This document shows, in pieces, positions 19,626 through 55,195 of a DNA stretch of 64,000 nt (the first letter of the stretch is position 1; each line of letters begins with the position of its first letter). The notes under the pieces are model-generated. The model did not search any database. It was not told where the DNA came from and was given only the letters and a program-made list of their open reading frames with translations. The position numbers were made by a program, and so were the translations under genes. Source of the stretch: an uncultured Bacilli bacterium (GTDB taxonomy: Bacteria > Bacillota_I > Bacilli_A > RF39 > UBA660); NCBI GenBank assembly GCA_934183155.1, contig CAKPSB010000006.1:25097-89096 (forward strand), written 5' to 3'.

Positions 19626-20942
19626 CTAAAAGTACCTCATTATTATATCATAGTTTTCGTTATTTGACTTATCAAATTTGCTTTTTTTTAGGCCTGGAAG
19701 CCAAATTATTTGACCGTTATCATCGGTTACGACTGGCCATGTGTTTCTTTTTTCTTTTGGTATTTTCTCGTTTATAAAAATTTCTTTTATTTTTTTTGAT
19801 TTGTTTAATCCTTTTAAGATGATTTTATCACCTGGTTGTTTATTTCTTATATGAATTGGCATTTTGATTTCTTTTGAATTGATTTTTATTGTGTAATTTG
19901 AATTATCAGTTGTTTCGCCTTGAATTTTTATCATATGACCATTTGCCAGAATTATTTCCTTATTTAATATATAATTATATTCTTTTGTTTGATTAATTTT
20001 TTTTATGTATGCTTTATTATATTCTTTGACAAAACTTCTTTTTAAGGGGAGGGATAACGATTGATTGGGCTTGTTTGAATTTATAATATTTATGATTTGA
20101 TTTAGGTGGTTTTCATTTATTTTTGTAATATTTTCACCATATTCTTCTATTAAAATTTTAGAAATTGTCTTCTTTTGAATTAACTTTTTTTCCCTCCTTA
20201 ATTTAGATATATTTATTGCTTCATCTTCATATATTTGTGGTAATTTTTCTTTTATTATATTTTCAAAATAATTTTCAGTTTCATTGATGGTTTTACTAAA
20301 ATTTAAAAATTTTAGATGGATATTTTTATTTTCTTTTTTTAAATAAGGTAAAATATGCATTCTTATTCTATTTCTTGTAAACTTTTCGCTTTCGTTTGTT
20401 TTATCGACAGCGTATGGAATATTATTTTTTTGGACATACTTTAATATTTCTTCTTTTGTTTTAGTAATCAATGGGCGGTATATTTTATACCCTTCTTGAT
20501 TTGTTATTTGTGGAAAGGCTCCATACCCTTTTAGGGACGACCCTCTTATTATTCTCATTAATATGGTTTCGGTTAAATCATCGCCATGATGTGCGGTTAA
20601 AAGATATTTGGAGTTATATTTTTTTATTAGGCTTTGAAAAAATTGATATCTTTTTTTTCTGGCATAATTTTCTGTATTTCCTTTATAGTTTGTTATTTCC
20701 ATATATTCAAAGATAATATTGTTTTTTTGGCAATACGCTTGTACCATTTTTGCTTCGGCTTCACTTTCTTTTCTTAATTTATGATTTACATGAGCACACA
20801 CTATTTTTAAATTATTTTTTGTTTTTAAAAGAAGCGATAATAGAGCCATAGAATCTGGGCCACCCGATGTAGCCATTATAACTGTTTGATTTGGTTCTAT
20901 TTTGTTTTCTATTTCTCTAATGATATCATTCATCTTCATCAC
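19626..20942 (-). CDS. tilS: tRNA(Ile)-lysidine synthetase
   Basis: PP-loop SGGPDSMAL near the N-terminus, 438 aa. Directly upstream of ftsH as in Bacilli, but no hprT between them. Confidence 0.85.
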   Translation of the reverse strand: MMKMNDIIREIENKIEPNQTVIMATSGGPDSMALLSLLLKTKNNLKIVCAHVNHKLRKESEAEAKMVQAYCQKNNIIFEYMEITNYKGNTENYARKKRYQFFQSLIKKYNSKYLLTAHHGDDLTETILMRIIRGSSLKGYGAFPQITNQEGYKIYRPLITKTKEEILKYVQKNNIPYAVDKTNESEKFTRNRIRMHILPYLKKENKNIHLKFLNFSKTINETENYFENIIKEKLPQIYEDEAINISKLRREKKLIQKKTISKILIEEYGENITKINENHLNQIINIINSNKPNQSLSLPLKRSFVKEYNKAYIKKINQTKEYNYILNKEIILANGHMIKIQGETTDNSNYTIKINSKEIKMPIHIRNKQPGDKIILKGLNKSKKIKEIFINEKIPKEKRNTWPVVTDDNGQIIWLPGLKKSKFDKSNNENYDIIMRYF

Positions 20943-21591
20943 TCCATTTTATTGGCGTTATACCGTGGCTCACAAGAAAATTATTGGTTTTGGAAAAGGG
21001 CTTACTACCAAAGAATCCTCGATAAGCTGATAATGGTGAAGGGTGTGGTGCTTGTATTATGTAGTGATTTTTATTTGTTATTAATTTCTTTTTGCTTTGA
21101 GCGTAGCCTCCCCATAATATGAACACTATAGGTTTTTCTCTTTCATTTAATATTTTTATTAAATCATCGGTGAAAATTTCCCATCCTTTGTCTTTATGTG
21201 ATAATGGAGTATCCTTGACAACCGTCATGATTGAATTTAGTAGAAACACTCCTTGTTTAGCCCAGTCTGTTAGATTATTATTTGTTCTGGTTATACCTAG
21301 ATCATCTTTTAATTCTTTAAATATATTGTTTAATGATGGTGGTCTTTTGACGTTTGCTTCAACGGAAAATGAAAGTCCATGGGCTTCATGGGGGCCATGA
21401 TATGGATCTTGTCCCAATATTACAACTTTTACCTCATCATAATCAGTATACCTTAGAGCGTTAAATATATTCTTATATTCTGGATATATGATTTTTTTAT
21501 TATATTCATTTTTAATAAAGATGCCTAATTTTTGAAAATATGGTTTTTCCATTTCTTCTTTTAGAATTATATCCCATTTTTTGTTAATCAT
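20926..21591 (-). CDS. ung: Uracil-DNA glycosylase
   Basis: GQDPYHGP catalytic motif. HGLSFSV and HPSPLS motifs. 17-nt overlap with tilS start. Confidence 0.9.
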   Translation of the reverse strand: MINKKWDIILKEEMEKPYFQKLGIFIKNEYNKKIIYPEYKNIFNALRYTDYDEVKVVILGQDPYHGPHEAHGLSFSVEANVKRPPSLNNIFKELKDDLGITRTNNNLTDWAKQGVFLLNSIMTVVKDTPLSHKDKGWEIFTDDLIKILNEREKPIVFILWGGYAQSKKKLITNKNHYIIQAPHPSPLSAYRGFFGSKPFSKTNNFLVSHGITPIKWSDEDE

Positions 21592-21743
21592 GTTTTACCT
21601 CCTTTTGGAATATATTGTAGCATTTTTTTTATTATATATAAAGATATATTAATATTTTGAAATGTGTTTTAATAAAATATTTTGTGTAAATTTGACTTTT
21701 AATAAAATAGTGCTATAATATGTTCTCGCAAAGGGGGAAATGT

Positions 21744-22010
21744 ATGAAAAAATTAGTATATAAGCCTGGTGAACACAAGGTAATAGGTCTTGTAATGGCT
21801 AACACTGTAGAGAACGGAGAGGTGTTTGTTGCTAAAGTAGCACCTCATGATGGCTATAAATTTGTTAAAAAGATTTGTGATTTGGGTTTAAAAAGCAATA
21901 ACAAAAGCTCACAGACAGTTTATGGCGAATATGTTAATGTAGTTCCTGTTATTACAAGTGACCCAGAATTTATGGGTAAACCACTTACTAAAATTCGCAA
22001 GGAATTATAG
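21744..22010 (+). CDS. Hypothetical small protein
   Basis: Start re-set to ATG 21744 (MKKLVYKPGE...) after GGGGG RBS. 88 aa, no recognised family. Lies at the left edge of the toxin island. Confidence 0.4.
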   Translation: MKKLVYKPGEHKVIGLVMANTVENGEVFVAKVAPHDGYKFVKKICDLGLKSNNKSSQTVYGEYVNVVPVITSDPEFMGKPLTKIRKEL

Positions 22011-22145
22011 AAATCATATAAAGAAGCTTTATATGGTTTTTTTGTTGTTTTATTAATTCGTTTATCGATAAATTTTACAGGCTTTTACAATTTTTTGTCT
22101 TTTTTTTGATAACTTTTTTTATTATTGTTTTATTTAGCCTTAAAA

Positions 22146-22154
22146 ATGATATAA
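22146..22154 (+). promoter_or_regulatory. Extended -10 element (TGaTATAAT) upstream of the toxin module
   Basis: TGATATAAT at 22146-22154, about 45 nt upstream of the first island gene. No good -35 found. Confidence 0.3.
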
Positions 22155-22200
22155 TTTAAGAGATTATTTAACGTAGTTTACAATGGAAAGGAGTAGTTTA

Positions 22201-22473
22201 ATGAGCAAAGCAGTTTTATCAAATGCAAACGAGAATGCAAATAAATTATATAGCGCTACTCAGAATTTATATAATGCAAGCAACCATTTAAACGAGGTTA
22301 TAAATGATTTAAATAATGGAGCTACAGCAAATAGAATTAAATTTACAGTAACTATTTTGAGTACTTTACGAGATGAAATAAACGAAGAGATACTTTTGTT
22401 GCGAAATACTGCTAACGATATTGTTAGCGTGGCAAATTCAATTGAAAATGAAAATAAAGCACGTTCAGATTAA
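22201..22473 (+). CDS. Small all-helical protein, candidate WXG100-like / LXG-associated (Lap-type) targeting factor
   Basis: ATG 22201 preceded by AAGGAG (7-nt spacer). 90 aa. Heptad-like Asn/Leu/Ile pattern predicts two long helices. No WXG motif. Positioned immediately upstream of the large toxin gene. Confidence 0.45.
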   Translation: MSKAVLSNANENANKLYSATQNLYNASNHLNEVINDLNNGATANRIKFTVTILSTLRDEINEEILLLRNTANDIVSVANSIENENKARSD

Positions 22474-22546
22474 GTAATATTTATTTTATTTTTACTGATT
22501 TAATGTAACTATTTTTTAATTATTTTGAGTGATAGGATATGGTATT

Positions 22547-24658
22547 ATGAGTTATTTTAAACCGAATAAAATTAGTAATGGTGTTCTTGGCTTGGATATT
22601 GTTTATAGCCAAATAGAAGATGCATATGAAAAAATAAATAGTTGTAATAACTGTTTAAATTATTTAATTAAAGAAAATTTGAACTATAGTATTTCAAATA
22701 TTGCTGATAAAGTTTCTAAAAATCTTAGGACTAGTAAAGAGATGCAGAATAAAATTATTGATGTTATCGATGATTATAATAAAACGATGAGGCTAACTAC
22801 CGAAAATAGTATTGATTTAAATAGTATTTTACAAATGCCAGAAGAGCTTTTCTCATTTTTAGAACATAGCTCTGGTTCAATGGTAAAAATGCTTCAAAAT
22901 AGCTGTGATGTTCTTTATGATGTTGCTAGCGATACTGGAGCTAAATTTGTAGGCGATGTCAAGAGTTGGTTTACTAATCTTTATGAAACAAATATAGTTT
23001 ATAGAGCGGCTGCGTCAACTGGGGCTTCTCTTATAAATACTGGAATATCTTTTTTAAGCGGAGCAGCAAAATTTGTTGAAGGACTATTTGATGGGGCTTT
23101 TCTTTCTTTAGCTACTTTGGCTGTACCTATTACAGGACTTATAGATATGTCTTGGAATTGTTTAACTGGGGAAAATTTGGGTTTAACTGATACGATGTTA
23201 GAAAGTACGCGAGGTGTGGTACAGTATAACGCGGTTCAGTCTTGGTGTGACTGGTTATACAACACAGATTTTGGTAAAACTATTAATGATTGCTCATTTC
23301 CTTCATTTAAAAGAGATGGAGCCATATACAACTTGACAAATCAGGCCGGCACATTAGTCACTCCAATTCTTTTGTCAGCAGTTTTAGCATATTTTGGCGT
23401 TGATCCATCTATATCTTTGCCTCTATTAGCAGGTATTTCCTCATTTGGAAATACAACAGAAAATTTTTGGCAGAATGGCACTGGAACTGTGGAGGGAATG
23501 GCAGCTGGATTTTTAGATGGTTTATATAACGCCTTTCAATGGGCTATAGGTGGAAAATTAGATGGGACAGGGGCGAAATCTATATTATTTTATACCGTTG
23601 GTGGTTTTATTGAGCCTTTATTCCAAAGCTCCTTATTTGGCTTTGCTACTGGTGATGATATATTGAAAGTTTATAATGATAGTGGTGGATTAATGACCTC
23701 ACTTCAAAGTGCATTTTTATCTGGAATTATCGCTGGATGGGGTGAGCATAGTTATAATACAAAAATAAACACACAAAGATTAGAAGAGATCAATACTAAA
23801 AAAATAGATCTTGATATTTTTAACAATAAAATATCAGAAATAAATATTGAAAGAAATATAGATTCAGATACTTTTTCAAGCTTTAATGATATTGTTAATT
23901 TTTATAAAGTACATGGTAAAGCGCCCGGTGCATACTCTGTTGATGAAATTAATAATTTTTTAAATAAATATTCCAAAGAGGGATTTGATACTTTTAATTT
24001 TCTTAATTGCAGTGTAAAAGCTGAGCAAAAAAGTGTTATACATGACATTGGAACCGACTTAACTTACGTTGGAACCGAAAAAGGCAAAATTGGAAATACC
24101 GAATTAACATTTAATGTTTTACAAGATTCTGATGGAATACGTTATCGCATTCAAAATAGTGATGTCAATAATCACTTCCGTTTAAATGAAATATATGATT
24201 CTGTTTCAAAAGTAAAAGACTTTAGTGAATCTGGGGATTTAATGAAAAACGTTAAACAAATCGATGTTGTTTCTGTAAAAAATCCAGATGATGAGTTTTG
24301 GGCACAATTTCATGGTGATGGAACATTTACTTCTGCAGCAACTTTCAATAATGGTTATGTAACTATATACAAATTATCTCCAACTATAGATCAAACAATT
24401 GCTCATGAAGCAGGTCATGGTATAGATAAAAATAATATTTTATCTGGTTCAGATTTATGGGCTAAAGCTGCTGAGTTAGATGGAAATTTTGCGAGTGAAT
24501 ATGCTCGTTCATACAGAAATGGGGCAGCAGAAAATGGAGAGAAAAATTTGTATATTGAGGATTTTGCAGATTCAATTAGAAATCTTTATTCTTTAGGCTT
24601 TGAAAGGTTTCGCCAAAAATATCCTAACAGGGCTAAATTGTTGGAATTATTATTTTAG
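22547..24658 (+). CDS. Polymorphic toxin, LXG/EsaD-like architecture, with C-terminal ATLF/M34-like zinc metallopeptidase domain
   Basis: About 703 aa from ATG 22547 (ORF-track start is GTG at 22529). N-terminal about 150 aa is helical. A Gly/Ala/Ser-rich hydrophobic central region (AAASTGASLINTGISFLSGAAKFVEGLFDGAFLSLATLAVPITG...GTGAKSILFYTVGGFIEPL) resembles the EsaD/YeeF mid-region. The C-terminus has HEAGH (nt 24404-24418), then ELDGNFASEYA and YIEDFADSIR about 35-45 aa later, like the HEFGH...EFFAEAF of the anthrax lethal factor family. Confidence 0.6.
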   Translation: MSYFKPNKISNGVLGLDIVYSQIEDAYEKINSCNNCLNYLIKENLNYSISNIADKVSKNLRTSKEMQNKIIDVIDDYNKTMRLTTENSIDLNSILQMPEELFSFLEHSSGSMVKMLQNSCDVLYDVASDTGAKFVGDVKSWFTNLYETNIVYRAAASTGASLINTGISFLSGAAKFVEGLFDGAFLSLATLAVPITGLIDMSWNCLTGENLGLTDTMLESTRGVVQYNAVQSWCDWLYNTDFGKTINDCSFPSFKRDGAIYNLTNQAGTLVTPILLSAVLAYFGVDPSISLPLLAGISSFGNTTENFWQNGTGTVEGMAAGFLDGLYNAFQWAIGGKLDGTGAKSILFYTVGGFIEPLFQSSLFGFATGDDILKVYNDSGGLMTSLQSAFLSGIIAGWGEHSYNTKINTQRLEEINTKKIDLDIFNNKISEINIERNIDSDTFSSFNDIVNFYKVHGKAPGAYSVDEINNFLNKYSKEGFDTFNFLNCSVKAEQKSVIHDIGTDLTYVGTEKGKIGNTELTFNVLQDSDGIRYRIQNSDVNNHFRLNEIYDSVSKVKDFSESGDLMKNVKQIDVVSVKNPDDEFWAQFHGDGTFTSAATFNNGYVTIYKLSPTIDQTIAHEAGHGIDKNNILSGSDLWAKAAELDGNFASEYARSYRNGAAENGEKNLYIEDFADSIRNLYSLGFERFRQKYPNRAKLLELLF

Positions 24659-24666
24659 AAAGGACG

Positions 24667-24876
24667 ATGTTTTTGAAAAGAATTGATGGACCTACACCAA
24701 ATGGTGGAACGTATGCTGAGGTATATTATTATGATGAGCATGATAAAGAAACTGATGATGTTAAAAAGGCTGTAAAAGCATATGGCCGTGAATATGATAA
24801 AAATGGCAAATTAATAAATGAAGTCTTTTTTACAAAAAACAATAATGATATTGAAGAAAAGGAGAAAATAAAATGA
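24667..24876 (+). CDS. Small acidic protein, candidate cognate immunity/inhibitor protein
   Basis: 69 aa, GGACG-type RBS. Starts 9 nt after the toxin stop. Its TGA stop overlaps the ATG of the next gene (ATGA coupling). Acidic (D/E-rich), no family recognised. Confidence 0.4.
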   Translation: MFLKRIDGPTPNGGTYAEVYYYDEHDKETDDVKKAVKAYGREYDKNGKLINEVFFTKNNNDIEEKEKIK

Positions 24877-25187
24877 GAGAAAAATATTTACCAATAGGAA
24901 CAGTTGTTACTTTAAAAGGAGCGACAAAAAAAATTATGGTTATAGGTTACTTACCAATGGTTGGTGACAAAAAGGAAGTTTATGATTATAGTGCTTGTAC
25001 TTTTCCAGAAGGAGTTTTGTCTTCAGATAAAACATTAGCTTTTAATCATAATCAAATTGAAAAAATTAACTTTGTTGGACTTGAAAATGAAGAAAGTAAA
25101 AAATTTGATGAAACTATTAAAAAGATGGTAAAAGGATTCCATGAACTTAAAGATGCAAAACTTCCTAATGATACAGAAATATTATAA
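24873..25187 (+). CDS. DUF4176-family protein (T7SSb/LXG-locus associated)
   Basis: 104 aa. LPIGTVVTLKG...KIMVIGY...YDYSACTFPEGV...FNHNQIEKINFVG matches the recalled DUF4176 consensus (LPIGSVV.LKG / YDYaGv.YPEG / FNH..I). Confidence 0.65.
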   Translation: MREKYLPIGTVVTLKGATKKIMVIGYLPMVGDKKEVYDYSACTFPEGVLSSDKTLAFNHNQIEKINFVGLENEESKKFDETIKKMVKGFHELKDAKLPNDTEIL

Positions 25188-25204
25188 TTTTTGATTAATT
25201 TGAT

Positions 25205-25230
25205 AAAACAGATAATTTCTGTTTTTTTGT
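25205..25230 (+). terminator. Rho-independent terminator after the DUF4176 gene
   Basis: AACAGA-TAATT-TCTGTT hairpin followed by TTTTTTG. Confidence 0.5.
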
Positions 25231-25318
25231 ATAGTTTACTTTTAATATAAATTATTTATAAATTTAAATATTGCATATTAAGTATAAGTGCTATAATTTA
25301 TTATAGGGAGCTGATGAT

Positions 25319-27907
25319 ATGGAAAATAAACATATTGATGATGAAATTTTAAGTGAATATAGAAAAATTAGTTCTTTGACTAATGATAAACTTTTTAATA
25401 ATTTTAAAAGTAAGGAAGATGGTCTTTCTAATAATGAGGCTAATTATCGCTTAAAAGTTTATGGAAAAAACGTTATAAAAGATGAAAAAATTAAAAAATG
25501 GTATGATTTTTTATTTGATTCTTGTAAGGATCCCTTTATTTATATTTTAACTGTTTTAGCTATTATTGACTTGATTTTAGGTGATGTACTTGGTGCCTTA
25601 ATTATATTTGTTTTAGCTTCAATTAGTATTATTATTAGGCTTGTTCAAGATTATTCAGCTTATAAATTTGATAGAAAATTAAGAAATAGACTTTTTACTA
25701 AAGCTAATGTATTAAGAGATAATAAAAATGTGGAAATTAAAACTTCTAACTTGGTTGTTGGGGATATTGTGCAATTAAATGCTGGAGCAATTATTCCCGC
25801 TGATATAGTTTTACTATCTTCAAATGATTTATTTATTAATCAATCTGTTTTTACTGGTGAGAGTGTACCTACTGAGAAAAAATCAGGTGAATGTGATATT
25901 AAGTCTTTACTAACGGCGGATAATATTTGCTTAATGAACTGCTGCGTTGTTAGTGGTAGTGCGACTGGTTTAGTAATTGAAACAGGAAAGAACACTTATA
26001 TTGGACGAATTTCAAAGGAAATGGGGGAAAAAGCTCCACTTACTAATTTTCAAGTTGGTATGCAGGCAGTAAGCAAAACTTTAATTACTTATATGGTGGT
26101 AATTACTATTGCGGTATTTATTTTAAATTCTTTATTACATCGTGATTTACTTCAAGCGTTGCTTTTTTCTATATCAGTAGCAGTTGGTATAACTCCGGGT
26201 ATGCTTCCTATGATTGTTAATGTTAATCTTTCGAAGGGTACTAAGACGCTTGCTAAAAAAAGAACTTTAGTAAAGCGGATTGAAGCTATTGAAAATTTAG
26301 GTGCTATTGATATTCTTTGTACTGATAAAACAGGAACTCTTACTCAAAATCAAATTACCTTACAATATTATAGAAATGTAAATGGTAAGGAGGATGAGAC
26401 AATTTTAAAATATGCTTATCTTAACAGTTTATATTCTACTGGTATTAAAAATATTATTGATAGAGCTATTATGAGTTATGCGACTAGTCATGATGTTAAA
26501 AACAAGGTATCACACTATAAGAAAATTGACGAGATTCCATTTGATTATAATAGACGTTTGGCTAGTGTTGTTGTTAAAAATGGGGAAAAGGTAAGAATAC
26601 TTACTAAAGGAGCTTTAACTGAAGTTTTAAAAAAATGTACTAAAGTTAAATATCAAAATAAAGTTATGGATATTAATAGTGACTTAATTTATAAAATTAA
26701 AGCGGATGTTCAAAAGTTAATATCTGATGGTATGCAAGTAATTGCCCTTGCTGAAAAAGAGGATTATAGTGGTGTTAATAATTTTAGTGTTAAAGATGAA
26801 TGTGATTTAATATTTATTGGCTATGTTGCTTTTTTAGACCCTCCTAAAAAAGAAGTTAAAACTGTTTTAAAAAAATTACTTTCAGTTGGTGTTCATACTA
26901 AAATTTTAACTGGGGATAATCCCGAAGCTACTAAAGTAATATGTAAAGAGGCTGGATTAAATATTAATGAGGTTTTGATTGGTGAAGATGTTGATAAATT
27001 AACTGATAAAGAGCTTGCTAAAAAGGTTGAAATTTCAGATATATTTGCTAGACTTACACCTTTACAAAAACAAAGAATCGTAGATACTTTAAAAAGAAAT
27101 GGCCACGTTGTCGGATATATGGGAGATGGGGTTAATGATGCCCCTTCACTAATACAAGCGGATGTTGGAATTAGTGTTGATTCGGCTACTGATATTGCTA
27201 AAGAATCTAGTGATATTATTTTACTTGAAAAAAGTTTAAAAGTTGTCTATGATGGTGTTTTAGAAGGTAGAAGAGTATATGGTAATATCATGAAGTATAT
27301 GAAAATGGCTTTATCAGCTTCATTTGGCGATGTGTTTAGTGTCTTTTTGGCTAGTATTTGTTTGCCATTTTTACCAATGATTCCGATTCAATTTTTGCTT
27401 CAGGATTTACTTTATGACACTTCTCAAATAGCTATTCCTTTTGATAATGTTGATGAAGATTTTTTAATTAAACCTCACAAATGGGATACAAGTGATTTAA
27501 AAGATTTTATGAATGTTATGGGAATTACTGCTTCAGTTATTGATTTGATTGCTTTTGCAGTATTCTGGTTCTTGCTTGGATATAATACGGTGGAAAAAAC
27601 AGTTGCCTTCCAAACAGCTTGGTTTATTGAAGGTGTTATTTCTCAAACAATGATTGTTCATTTTATTAGAACAGAGAAAATTCCTTTTGTTGAATCAATT
27701 GCAAATAAATGGTTACTTCTTTCAACATCACTTTGTATTATTGCTTCAATGATTTTACCTTTGCTACTAAAGGGTGTTAAAGATTTTCATTTTACAGCTT
27801 TACCTTTTGCGTTTTATATGTATGTAATTATTTTAATGATTTTGTATGCTATATTAACAGAATTTGTGAAACATTATTACATAAAAAAACATCACAGATG
27901 GTTATAA
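25319..27907 (+). CDS. mgtA: Mg2+-importing P-type ATPase (MgtA-like, P3B)
   Basis: 862 aa. Phosphorylation site ICTDKTGTLT. TGES-type actuator motif (TGESVP). Hinge MTGDGVNDAPSL. 10 TMs. No M-box-like leader seen upstream. Confidence 0.85.
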   Translation: MENKHIDDEILSEYRKISSLTNDKLFNNFKSKEDGLSNNEANYRLKVYGKNVIKDEKIKKWYDFLFDSCKDPFIYILTVLAIIDLILGDVLGALIIFVLASISIIIRLVQDYSAYKFDRKLRNRLFTKANVLRDNKNVEIKTSNLVVGDIVQLNAGAIIPADIVLLSSNDLFINQSVFTGESVPTEKKSGECDIKSLLTADNICLMNCCVVSGSATGLVIETGKNTYIGRISKEMGEKAPLTNFQVGMQAVSKTLITYMVVITIAVFILNSLLHRDLLQALLFSISVAVGITPGMLPMIVNVNLSKGTKTLAKKRTLVKRIEAIENLGAIDILCTDKTGTLTQNQITLQYYRNVNGKEDETILKYAYLNSLYSTGIKNIIDRAIMSYATSHDVKNKVSHYKKIDEIPFDYNRRLASVVVKNGEKVRILTKGALTEVLKKCTKVKYQNKVMDINSDLIYKIKADVQKLISDGMQVIALAEKEDYSGVNNFSVKDECDLIFIGYVAFLDPPKKEVKTVLKKLLSVGVHTKILTGDNPEATKVICKEAGLNINEVLIGEDVDKLTDKELAKKVEISDIFARLTPLQKQRIVDTLKRNGHVVGYMGDGVNDAPSLIQADVGISVDSATDIAKESSDIILLEKSLKVVYDGVLEGRRVYGNIMKYMKMALSASFGDVFSVFLASICLPFLPMIPIQFLLQDLLYDTSQIAIPFDNVDEDFLIKPHKWDTSDLKDFMNVMGITASVIDLIAFAVFWFLLGYNTVEKTVAFQTAWFIEGVISQTMIVHFIRTEKIPFVESIANKWLLLSTSLCIIASMILPLLLKGVKDFHFTALPFAFYMYVIILMILYAILTEFVKHYYIKKHHRWL

Positions 27908-53399: not shown

Positions 53400-53612
53400 T
53401 GCTTGGAAAAGCGATGAAGGAAAGAATAGTAGGAATCTTTTTAGAGAGTCTATGGCTGGTGAAAATGGGCAAGTGAACTACTTTAAATGGCTCTGGAGCT
53501 GTTTAGCTGAATAAGCTAGAACGTATACACACGTTATGTGTTTAAGGTAAGTTGTCTTACAAATTAAGGTGGTACCACGTTTTAAACGTCCTTATATATT
53601 AAGGATGTTTTT
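53400..53612 (+). promoter_or_regulatory. T-box riboswitch leader (Met specifier) controlling metG
   Basis: Stem I AGAGAG element with AUG in specifier position (AGAGAGTCTATGGCT). Conserved T-box AAATTAAGGTGGTACCACG (53563-53581). Terminator ACGTCCTTA-TATAT-TAAGGATGT plus TTTTTT (53586-53613). Confidence 0.75.
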
Positions 53613-53629
53613 TGTTAGGAGGGATAGGT

Positions 53630-55195
53630 ATGAAACCAAAATTTTATATAACTACATCTATTTTTTATGCATCTGCGAAACCACATATAGGAAATACTTA
53701 TGAAGGTGTTTTAACAGATGCTATCGCAAGATATAAAAGATTGATGGGATTTGATGTTAGATTTCACACTGGATGTGATGAACATGGGGAAAAAGTAGAA
53801 TCAAAAGCTTTAGCGGCTAATAAAAGTCCACAAGAGTATGTTGACGAAATATCGCTTGAGGTTAAAAGAATTGATGATTTGCTTAATATAAGTTATGACA
53901 AGTTTGTTCGAACTACTGATTTAAATCATAAAGAAGTGGTGGCTAAAATATTTAAAAAACTTTATGATAAGGGAGATATTTATAAAGGAAAATATGAAGG
54001 CCTTTATTGTACACCTTGTGAGTCATTTTTTACGGAAAAAGATTTAGTTGGTGGTAAATGTCCTGATTGTGGAAGGGAAGTTCATAAAACTGAAGAAGAA
54101 GCTTACTTCTTAAAATTGAGTAAATATAATAAATGGCTTGAAGAATATATAGAAAATCATCCTGATTTTATTAAACCAGAAAGCAGAAAAAACGAAATTG
54201 TTAATAATTTTATTAAACCTGGTGTACAAGATTTATGTGTTTCAAGGACATCTTTTGACTGGGGAATTAAAGTTCCGTTTGATGAGAAACACGTTGTTTA
54301 TGTATGGCTTGATGCATTGGTTAACTATATAACTTTTGTTGGATATGATCCTGATAATGAAAGTGAAGAGTTTAATCATTACTGGCCTGCGGATGTACAC
54401 ATAATAGGAAAAGATATTCTTAGATTTCACACGATTTACTGGCCTGTGATATTGAAAGCGTTGGATTTACCTATGCCTAAATGTGTTTTTGGTCATCCTT
54501 GGGTTCTTTCTTCTGATAGTGATAAAATGAGTAAATCTAAGGGAAATGTTTTATATGCAGATGATTTAGTTCATTTATTTGGCTGTGATGCAATTCGTTA
54601 TTATGTTTTACATGAAATTCCTTATGGACATGATGGAAATATTGGTTATGAATTAATTATTGATAGAGTAAATTCTGATTTAGCTAATACTTTAGGAAAT
54701 CTTGTTAATAGAACAATAAGTATGAGTCATAAATATTTTAATGGCGTTGTTTTTAAACCTAGTGAAATAAATGATATTGACAAAGGTTTAATTGAAATGG
54801 CAACTAGCCTAGGTGATAGAATTGAAAGCAAAATGAAAGAATTAAAAATTGCGGATGCTTTAGAAGAAATAATTGATTTGTTTAGGCAATGTAATAAGTA
54901 TATTGATGAAACTACTCCTTGGATTTTAGCAAAAGATAAAAGTCAAGAAAAAAGATTACAAACTGTTTTATATAATTTATTAGAGTGTATTAGAATTGCT
55001 GCTGTTTATTTACAAGCTTTTTTACCTCAGACAGCTGATAAAATATTTGAACAGTTAAATACTCAAAATAGGAAACCCGAAAGTACTAAAGATTTTAATG
55101 GTATGGATGATGGTATTATATTAAACAAACCGGAAATTTTATTTACTAGAATAGATAAAGCCGAGTTTTCTTCAAAGATGAAAGCTAATGATTAG
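53630..55195 (+). CDS. metG: Methionyl-tRNA synthetase (short form, no C-terminal tRNA-binding extension)
   Basis: Start ATG 53630 after GGAGGG. HIGN(T) variant of HIGH, knuckles with CPDCG zinc motif, KMSKS. About 521 aa. Confidence 0.95.
   Translation: MKPKFYITTSIFYASAKPHIGNTYEGVLTDAIARYKRLMGFDVRFHTGCDEHGEKVESKALAANKSPQEYVDEISLEVKRIDDLLNISYDKFVRTTDLNHKEVVAKIFKKLYDKGDIYKGKYEGLYCTPCESFFTEKDLVGGKCPDCGREVHKTEEEAYFLKLSKYNKWLEEYIENHPDFIKPESRKNEIVNNFIKPGVQDLCVSRTSFDWGIKVPFDEKHVVYVWLDALVNYITFVGYDPDNESEEFNHYWPADVHIIGKDILRFHTIYWPVILKALDLPMPKCVFGHPWVLSSDSDKMSKSKGNVLYADDLVHLFGCDAIRYYVLHEIPYGHDGNIGYELIIDRVNSDLANTLGNLVNRTISMSHKYFNGVVFKPSEINDIDKGLIEMATSLGDRIESKMKELKIADALEEIIDLFRQCNKYIDETTPWILAKDKSQEKRLQTVLYNLLECIRIAAVYLQAFLPQTADKIFEQLNTQNRKPESTKDFNGMDDGIILNKPEILFTRIDKAEFSSKMKAND

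Follow-up and report, generated by a model that had tools for sequence, protein, structure and literature searches.

What does a bacterium of the uncultured gut Bacilli encode in a compact four-gene operon, wedged between the housekeeping genes ung and mgtA, of whose products only one matches a family model? The window analyzed here is a stretch of 64,000 nucleotides (64 kb) from contig CAKPSB010000006.1 of assembly GCA_934183155.1 (lineage RF39, UBA660). The operon occupies region 22147-25232 of its plus strand and encodes, in this order, a 90-residue protein (ORF A; ORF, open reading frame), a 703-residue putative toxin (hereafter the toxin), a 67-residue protein (orf67), and a 104-residue DUF4176 protein. 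A previous reading of the DNA made without database searches, referred to below as the sequence-only reading, described the locus as an orphan polymorphic toxin module of the type VIIb style. [quoted passage not shown] The cassette is read as a T7SSb module because homologues of three of its four genes follow essC, YukD-like, and mostly WXG100 genes in relatives; the support for the earlier description thus comes from gene context and not from the hidden Markov model (HMM) matches that had been expected.

Loci of relatives were found in at least six uncultured Bacilli lineages (L009, L010, L017, L018, L027, and L028/L029). A scan of species-representative genomes located toxin homologues in two uncultured Bacilli assemblies, and more loci were reached through the nearest DUF4176 homologues from outside the species; with narrow alignments, the locus scans found 2 loci in genomes, 1 in viral contigs, and 5 in metagenomes. 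The gene order in L009, L010, L027, and L028/L029 is an EssC-like ATPase (~1530 amino acids [aa], with FHA and FtsK_SpoIIIE domains), a YukD-like ORF of ~83 aa (which matches YukD only in L009, and weakly), a pair of genes of WXG100 size (94-100 aa), a 92-106-aa ORF, the toxin, a 222-250-aa ORF, and DUF4176. Locus L017 starts and ends in the same way and has further effector genes before the WXG100 pair, and L018 shows the same overall order, with no WXG100 match on record. Across the essC loci, the ORF before the toxin measures 85-106 aa and the ORF after it 219-250 aa. The toxin homologues in all of these loci therefore stand in the context of LXG-like T7SSb substrates, with essC/esxA linkage, a partner, a variable C-terminus, and an immunity gene. 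The window itself holds the partner, the immunity candidate, and the chaperone, and essC and esxA are not within its 64 kb.

An exhaustive profile search with the toxin yielded 276 cluster representatives at E ≤ 0.001, whose matches split into three independent blocks: an N-terminal block (residues ~1-106), found in few proteins only; a middle block (~150-430); and a C-terminal block (~540-703). The middle domain is 26-28% identical between the window and the relatives' loci. In the family-model scans, which covered 88 toxin relatives, proteins carrying the middle domain ended in varied C-termini, including ADP-ribosyltransferase (10/44), HD domains, and others. Two of its segments have Kyte-Doolittle values of 1.65-1.82, a transmembrane-like hydropathy, and the domain is a candidate for both the DUF4176-binding and the membrane-translocation region. 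The whole toxin matched no family in Pfam, NCBIfam, or PHROGs. Across eight loci, a conserved trunk is followed by alternative C-termini, and the C-terminus and the downstream gene change together; the swapping of these two as a pair behind a conserved trunk and its helpers is the signature of a polymorphic toxin with its immunity gene.

The C-terminal block (residues 541-703) is, as judged from its sequence and its structural model, a gluzincin of the lethal-factor/Pro-Pro endopeptidase (PPEP) fold with a complete active site. In alignments of 34 and 44 relatives, the residues H, E, H, Y, and E of the motifs HExxH, YA, and EDFA(E/D) are invariant, and the active-site residues are intact in all four alleles of the species. 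The domain profile matched the solved structures of anthrax lethal factor (E = 6e-6), Pro-Pro endopeptidase 1 (~3e-5), and a zinc metallohydrolase lipoprotein (3e-6), and in this alignment the conserved residues of the domain pair with HEFGH, Y, and E-x-F-A-E in lethal factor. An AlphaFold2 model built from the 34-sequence alignment reached a predicted local distance difference test score (pLDDT) of 93.2 and a predicted template modeling score of 0.90, with lethal factor and PPEP-3 as the top Foldseek matches. The domain thus combines what distinguishes ATLF/M34 gluzincins, namely HExxH, a downstream Glu as the third zinc ligand, and a catalytic Tyr, on a lethal-factor/PPEP fold. It differs from the known ATLF/M34 proteases in its identity of 13-15% to solved members and in having no match to Pfam ATLF (PF07737), which was not found on the toxin at E ≤ 1 and is not among the families matched by the 44 relatives. 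The 2012 catalogue of polymorphic toxins (Zhang et al., PMC3482391) records the lethal-factor-like (Tox-ALF) class solely in combination with delivery of the PVC and type II kinds and with immunity of the SuFu type, whereas the domain of the cassette sits on a type-VII-style trunk, occurs elsewhere on phage MuF proteins, and is accompanied by a different, small immunity candidate. The literature searched contained no link of a lethal-factor-like metallopeptidase to type VII toxins.

The protease domain ends proteins of many lengths; among the relatives P0005-P0153, 5 have it fused to Phage_Mu_F and 2 to Phage_min_cap2. Its presence on phage MuF and minor-capsid proteins means that the same cargo is found in two delivery vehicles. 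These fusions, and the match of the DUF4176 protein to a PHROG family of unknown function, would fit a remnant of a prophage-borne MuF-type polymorphic toxin, yet the toxin contains no MuF or capsid domain and has no PHROG match, the neighborhood is free of phage genes, the scan of viral contigs gave a single weak locus, and the essC-linked family includes the N-terminal and middle modules. We regard such a remnant as extremely improbable, and a phage origin was rejected on the PHROG result and the neighborhood scans. The lethal-factor/PPEP-like cargo was also seen on viral contig L011.

The N-terminal targeting domain is common to proteins P0006, P0007, P0008, P0012, P0013, P0023, and P0038 and is 33-35% identical to the essC-adjacent toxins of L009, L010, L017, and L028; residues F4, P6, and L45 are invariant in the alignment, which contains no conserved LxG column. 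Homologues of ORF A (32-41% identity) lie directly 5' of the toxin in L009, L017, and L027, including the 85-aa ORF just upstream of the L017 toxin homologue (41% identity, E = 1e-16) and the 92-aa ORF of L009 (34% identity, E = 6e-13), and ORFs of 93 aa occupy the same position in L010, L028, and L029. ORF A and its counterparts in relatives have in common a central GAT(A/T)N(R/K)IK turn. ORF A is probably the helical-hairpin partner of the toxin N-terminal domain, that is, a Lap-like targeting factor. Within L017 (2123-6269), additional effectors of 272, 270 (NlpC/P60-like), and 575 aa carry the N-terminal domain of the toxin, each preceded by a small helical ORF; in that locus, the domain is therefore a reusable export module.

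The fourth gene is the one that a family model matched. As the sequence-only reading had it, the operon closes with DUF4176 and its start overlaps the end of the preceding gene by ATGA (24873-24876): the protein matches PF13780 over the full 74-position profile (E = 5e-27; 94.2 bits, where the cut-off is 25). A further match is to 9DCS, a small DUF4176 protein of solved structure (E = 1.9e-8), and its identity to the DUF4176 genes at the ends of the cassettes of seven type VII loci is 55-73%. With 104 aa and an overlap with the stop of orf67, it has the size (70-130 aa) and the position, beside or after an immunity gene, of the small subclass. DUF4176 proteins are chaperones that stabilize type VIIb toxins via a hydrophobic or disordered middle region, and the small members usually adjoin immunity genes (PMC12478183). 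By analogy, the protein would be an Ltc-type toxin chaperone, with binding to this toxin predicted.

The third gene, orf67, had been read as an acidic 69-aa ORF. The length is correct if translation starts at ATG 24667 (67 aa from TTG), but the isoelectric point (pI) of the product is 5.4, so that it is only mildly acidic. The product is strongly hydrophilic, with no hydrophobic segment; since it has neither a signal peptide nor a membrane segment, it fits a cytoplasmic immunity protein. It has no match in Pfam, NCBIfam, or PHROGs. Along with the protease domain, orf67 is the only part of the module lacking a homologue in the relatives' cassettes, where other C-termini are followed by the 219-250-aa ORFs. 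A database search with orf67 returned only the same species and one 72%-identical protein on a 1.1-kb contig, where it follows a truncated gene ending in ...RHEILKQIL, which resembles the PNRxxIL ending of the protease domain.

Taken as a T7SSb cassette, the operon would work as follows. By analogy with Lap-LXG complexes, ORF A would pair with the ~100-residue N-terminal helical domain of the toxin and form the export signal. The small DUF4176 chaperone would shield the hydrophobic helices of the toxin, most likely those in the middle domain, until export, as the demonstrated function of the family suggests. Inside the producer, orf67 would block the zinc protease, a role that its position and its co-variation with the toxin domain point to. 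The toxin would then be exported by an EssC-driven T7SSb encoded outside the 64 kb, and in a competitor the middle domain would carry the protease across the membrane to cleave a cytoplasmic target. The target in the victim is placed in the cytoplasm because orf67 would be a soluble cytoplasmic inhibitor.

Several results weigh against this account. The sequence-only reading had given the ~700-residue toxin an LXG/EsaD-like architecture; its length of 703 aa is as described, but no LXG model matches it, and of the families named as likely in the module only DUF4176 was recovered, with LXG, WXG100, and the Lap families all nil at E ≤ 1. Specifically, LXG (PF04740) gave no match on the toxin in Pfam at that threshold and nothing in NCBIfam, and was absent from the 88 toxin relatives at E ≤ 0.001. 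ORF A belongs to no Pfam, NCBIfam, or PHROG family and matched neither the Lap families (DUF3130, DUF3958, DUF5082, and DUF5344) nor WXG100 (PF06013) at E ≤ 1. Comparison by hhalign with the WXG100 proteins of relatives returned probabilities of 2.2% for ORF A and 0.4% for the toxin N-terminal domain, and the N-terminal profile found only coiled-coil noise among solved structures (spike HR1, keratin), with EsxA at E = 0.44. Characterized LXG toxins use two or more small helical partners, and a single such gene is present here. The model of the full-length toxin, made from five close sequences, has a pLDDT of 31 and leaves the N-terminal hairpin and the middle domain unsupported by structure. 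An HMM of the small ORFs that follow other lethal-factor-like domains ranked orf67 first or second of 536 window ORFs, a result that is not significant (E = 0.2-0.45); orf67 is the probable cognate cytoplasmic immunity protein of the protease domain on the strength of its position and co-variation only. In addition, accessory toxin islands are not typically found fixed at a junction of housekeeping genes, as this cassette is. Finally, the claim that the 64 kb contain no type VII core gene was upheld by Pfam scans of all large ORFs and by tblastn with the type VII proteins of relatives, which detected no EssC, YukD, or WXG100 homologue.

The last of these results bears on a reading in which the cassette is a true orphan: the T7SSb core was lost or never present, and the toxin is exported in some other way or is active within the producer, e.g., as a toxin-antitoxin-like or abortive-infection module. 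The 22 kb upstream and the 39 kb downstream of the cassette contain no core gene, and Pfam scans there named only housekeeping functions (e.g., AddAB, SNF2 helicase, Mfd, FtsH, TilS, ParAB, BipA, and MetG). The cassette is also displaced from its position in every relative examined. Within the species it is as fixed as a core gene, and its toxin ends in a protease domain that elsewhere is delivered by phage MuF proteins. Yet ORF A and DUF4176 are kept intact and conserved (90-100% identity between strains), and to our knowledge the only role of proteins of the ORF A and DUF4176 types is in T7SSb export. The N-terminal targeting domain is, moreover, the best-conserved part of the toxin between alleles (~91%), and absence from 64 kb, which make up little of a genome, is not informative to any great degree. 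We therefore hold a true orphan to be quite unlikely.

The relatives' own secretion loci raise a related possibility. They look pared down (L009 1-9700; L010 1-9700; L028 1-5700; L029 1-6200), with EssC, the YukD-like 83-aa ORF, and a pair of WXG100 genes; the gene directly upstream of essC is smpB or yunB, the latter a sporulation gene. No match to the EssA, EssB, or EsaA families was obtained beside essC in these loci; the remaining core parts may be elsewhere, or the clade may have a minimal system. The cassette could accordingly work without a canonical T7SSb, either with no essC and by another route, or through a pared-down EssC/YukD-like/WXG100 machine that recognizes a short non-LXG domain with a single partner. 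The second version is prompted by the lack of any EssA, EssB, or EsaA family beside essC in every relative's locus. We consider it unlikely that either version applies, and favor a cassette that depends on a T7SSb encoded elsewhere in the genome.

We next consider how the cassette is distributed within the species. A Pth protein exactly like that of the window is recorded in 93 index blocks of gut metagenome assemblies, and 24 contigs of the species were read, from human gut metagenomes including Hadza samples. All 24 have the cassette at ung-mgtA, in the layout ung, 88-aa ORF, four-gene module, and mgtA; across the locus, ERZ28617214 scaffold_46 (159 kb) does not differ from the window. The proposal of a strain-variable island therefore does not hold: with 24/24 contigs carrying it at one site, the cassette is fixed in the species. 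Figures for the toxin (Table 1) come from the divergent alleles L001, L003, and L006 (L023 equals L006); L021 does not differ from the window, and L024 has 99% identity to it. All toxin alleles are intact. The middle domain is the most divergent part of the toxin between strains and the N-terminal domain the best conserved, and the synonymous divergence (dS) of the middle domain against L003 and L006 is roughly tenfold that of the flanking genes in the same strain pairs. Such raised synonymous divergence speaks for old alleles or imported segments rather than for relaxed constraint alone, and suggests recombination with distant alleles or long-maintained allelic lineages.

Table 1. Features of the cassette and its surroundings in the window, with divergence between strains (dN/dS, ratio of nonsynonymous to synonymous divergence)
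Feature	Coordinates	Strand	Basis or remarks	Amino acid identity	dS	dN/dS
ung	20926-21591	-	PF03167; flank			
88-aa ORF between ung and operon	21744-22010	+	own promoter 21692-21719, terminator 22009-22045	91-97%		
Extended -10 promoter box TGATATAAT	22147-22155	+	direct sequence reading; 45 nt 5' of first gene			
ORF A, 90 aa	22201-22473	+	GGAG ribosome-binding site 8 nt upstream			
Toxin, 703 aa from ATG	22547-24658	+	alternative GTG start 22529 gives 709 aa	78-92%	up to 0.30	~0.42
Toxin residues 1-106, N-terminal targeting domain	22547-22864	+	conserved YF-P start, two long predicted helices	~91%	0.11-0.14	0.31-0.38
Toxin residues 151-430, Gly/Ala-rich hydrophobic middle domain	22997-23836	+	most widely shared module in representative search	67-75%	0.42-0.56	~0.4
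Toxin residues 541-703, predicted zinc metalloprotease domain, PPEP/anthrax lethal factor fold	24167-24658	+	H620-E621-x-x-H624, Y652, E671 in EDFAD	87-91%	0.04-0.13	0.45-0.97
orf67, 67 aa from TTG	24673-24876	+	alternative ATG start 24667 gives 69 aa	96-99%	~0	not computable
DUF4176 gene, 104 aa	24873-25187	+	Pfam PF13780	94-100%	0-0.05	0-0.48
Probable intrinsic terminator AAAACAGA-loop-UCUGUUUU + U-run	25205-25232	+	fold energy			
P-type Mg/cation ATPase gene (mgtA)	25319-27907		Pfam scan; flank			
Flanking housekeeping genes				97-100%	0.03-0.16	0.03-0.22 (tilS vs L001 highest)

The same distribution could be read as that of a housekeeping or physiological system, in which an intracellular or surface zinc protease is served by a small regulator and a chaperone and no interbacterial toxin is involved. 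PPEP-type enzymes are secreted proteases that cleave surface proteins of the producer itself, the G+C content of the cassette is native, and its position between housekeeping genes is conserved in every strain read. We nevertheless judge this reading very unlikely. The N-terminal and middle modules recur in proteins with ADP-ribosyltransferase or further toxin domains at their ends, relatives exchange the C-terminus jointly with the downstream gene, and DUF4176 and the essC context of the relatives point to toxin export. Nor is the conservation of the housekeeping kind in all relatives, which would have spoken against a toxin module: allelic divergence is far above that of the flanks (78-92% identity for the toxin against 97-100%), and distant relatives keep the cassette in a type VII locus.

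The collection of species-representative genomes that was searched does not contain the species, and the sequences of it that were looked up all have sources other than NCBI. With ~28% G+C and sporulation genes, it appears to be a gut bacterium that is common but unrepresented.

Among described systems, the closest layout to that of the cassette is the TelD cluster of Streptococcus intermedius GC1825 (LapD1/LapD2, TelD, TipD, and MQE10_09270; PMC12478183), which has the same order of partner, toxin, immunity, and small DUF4176. Both toxins have hydrophobic helices that the small DUF4176 protein is proposed to shield. The two differ in that the cassette has one partner gene where the TelD cluster has two, in that its N-terminal domain of ~100 aa is unrecognized by the LXG model, and in that its toxin ends in a predicted protease behind the hydrophobic middle domain whereas TelD is a membrane-depolarizing toxin. 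The immunity candidate of the cassette is a soluble 67-aa protein and not a DUF443 membrane protein, and the cassette does not adjoin secretion genes. With the LXG toxins TelA and TelB, which have Ltc (large DUF4176), the toxin shares a three-part plan of a targeting domain, a poorly predicted hydrophobic or amphipathic middle, and an enzymatic domain acting in the cytoplasm; there too a DUF4176 partner is part of the cassette, and by analogy the toxin is predicted to depend on it. Here, however, the chaperone is of the small class and encoded downstream of the toxin rather than upstream, no sequence homology to LXG was detected in the toxin, and the middle is occupied by a conserved 280-aa module that is widely shared, not by a short disordered linker.

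The layout of the operon and its transcription signals largely agree with the sequence-only reading. ORF calling, together with the PF03167 match of ung and the P-type ATPase match of mgtA, bears out a plus-strand four-gene operon between the two genes, and the extended -10 promoter is present as described, with a perfect box. A consensus scan gave no good -35 box for this promoter. The window has 28 copies of the element TGNTATAAT, where 10.6 would be expected; they lie mostly 5' of genes, including the 88-aa ORF and mgtA, and the element is therefore taken to be the organism's usual promoter type. The orf67 start lies 15 nt 3' of the toxin stop codon, and orf67 is translationally coupled to the DUF4176 gene. 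The terminator, described as clean, does have a hairpin (an 8-bp A-U-rich stem) and a U-run, but it is weak (-7.4 kcal/mol, z = -1.3) and was missed in the consensus scan; a real but weak terminator is plausible. The promoter box of mgtA follows it at 25289-25297. The G+C content of the operon equals that of its surroundings, with no anomaly.

The 88-aa ORF between ung and the operon ends in a strong terminator (-12 kcal/mol, z = -4.5). Its product is basic (pI 9.4), occurs in every strain, and is more variable than the flanks. It has no match in Pfam, NCBIfam, or PHROGs and no counterpart in the relatives' type VII loci, and because of the latter it is not counted in the module. Promoter-like direct repeats are found at 21680-21724 and 25223-25302 (28 nt with 82% and 16 nt with 88% identity), upstream of the 88-aa ORF and mgtA. 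As they bracket a 3.5-kb segment, they were considered as insertion scars and rejected, the overall alignment being unconvincing; they are probably merely similar promoters in A+T-rich DNA. Elsewhere in the window, a T-box leader (118.6 bits) at 53405-53596 on the plus strand lies directly upstream of the methionyl-tRNA synthetase gene (53612-55195), and one of 48 window ORFs scanned matches the abortive-infection-like family Abi_2 (E = 1e-39) and is a possible phage-defense gene.

If the operon is, as we think probable, a T7SSb cassette apart from its secretion locus, it represents a family of type-VII-linked toxins that is of considerable size in uncultured gut Bacilli and has gone unannotated. 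The targeting domain and the helical partner escape the LXG, WXG, and Lap models, so surveys relying on those models undercount such toxins. The link of a PPEP/lethal-factor protease fold to type-VII-style delivery is a new cargo combination, absent from the 2012 catalogue, and should the less likely reading without a canonical T7SSb prove true, this would be the first protease of that fold to serve as an interbacterial type VII toxin. The 280-residue hydrophobic middle domain is a concrete candidate for two roles, the membrane-translocation step that has long been sought and the site at which small DUF4176 proteins bind. Fixed in its species, unlinked from a secretion locus, and present in hyper-divergent alleles, the cassette offers a case for the study of how toxin diversity is maintained.

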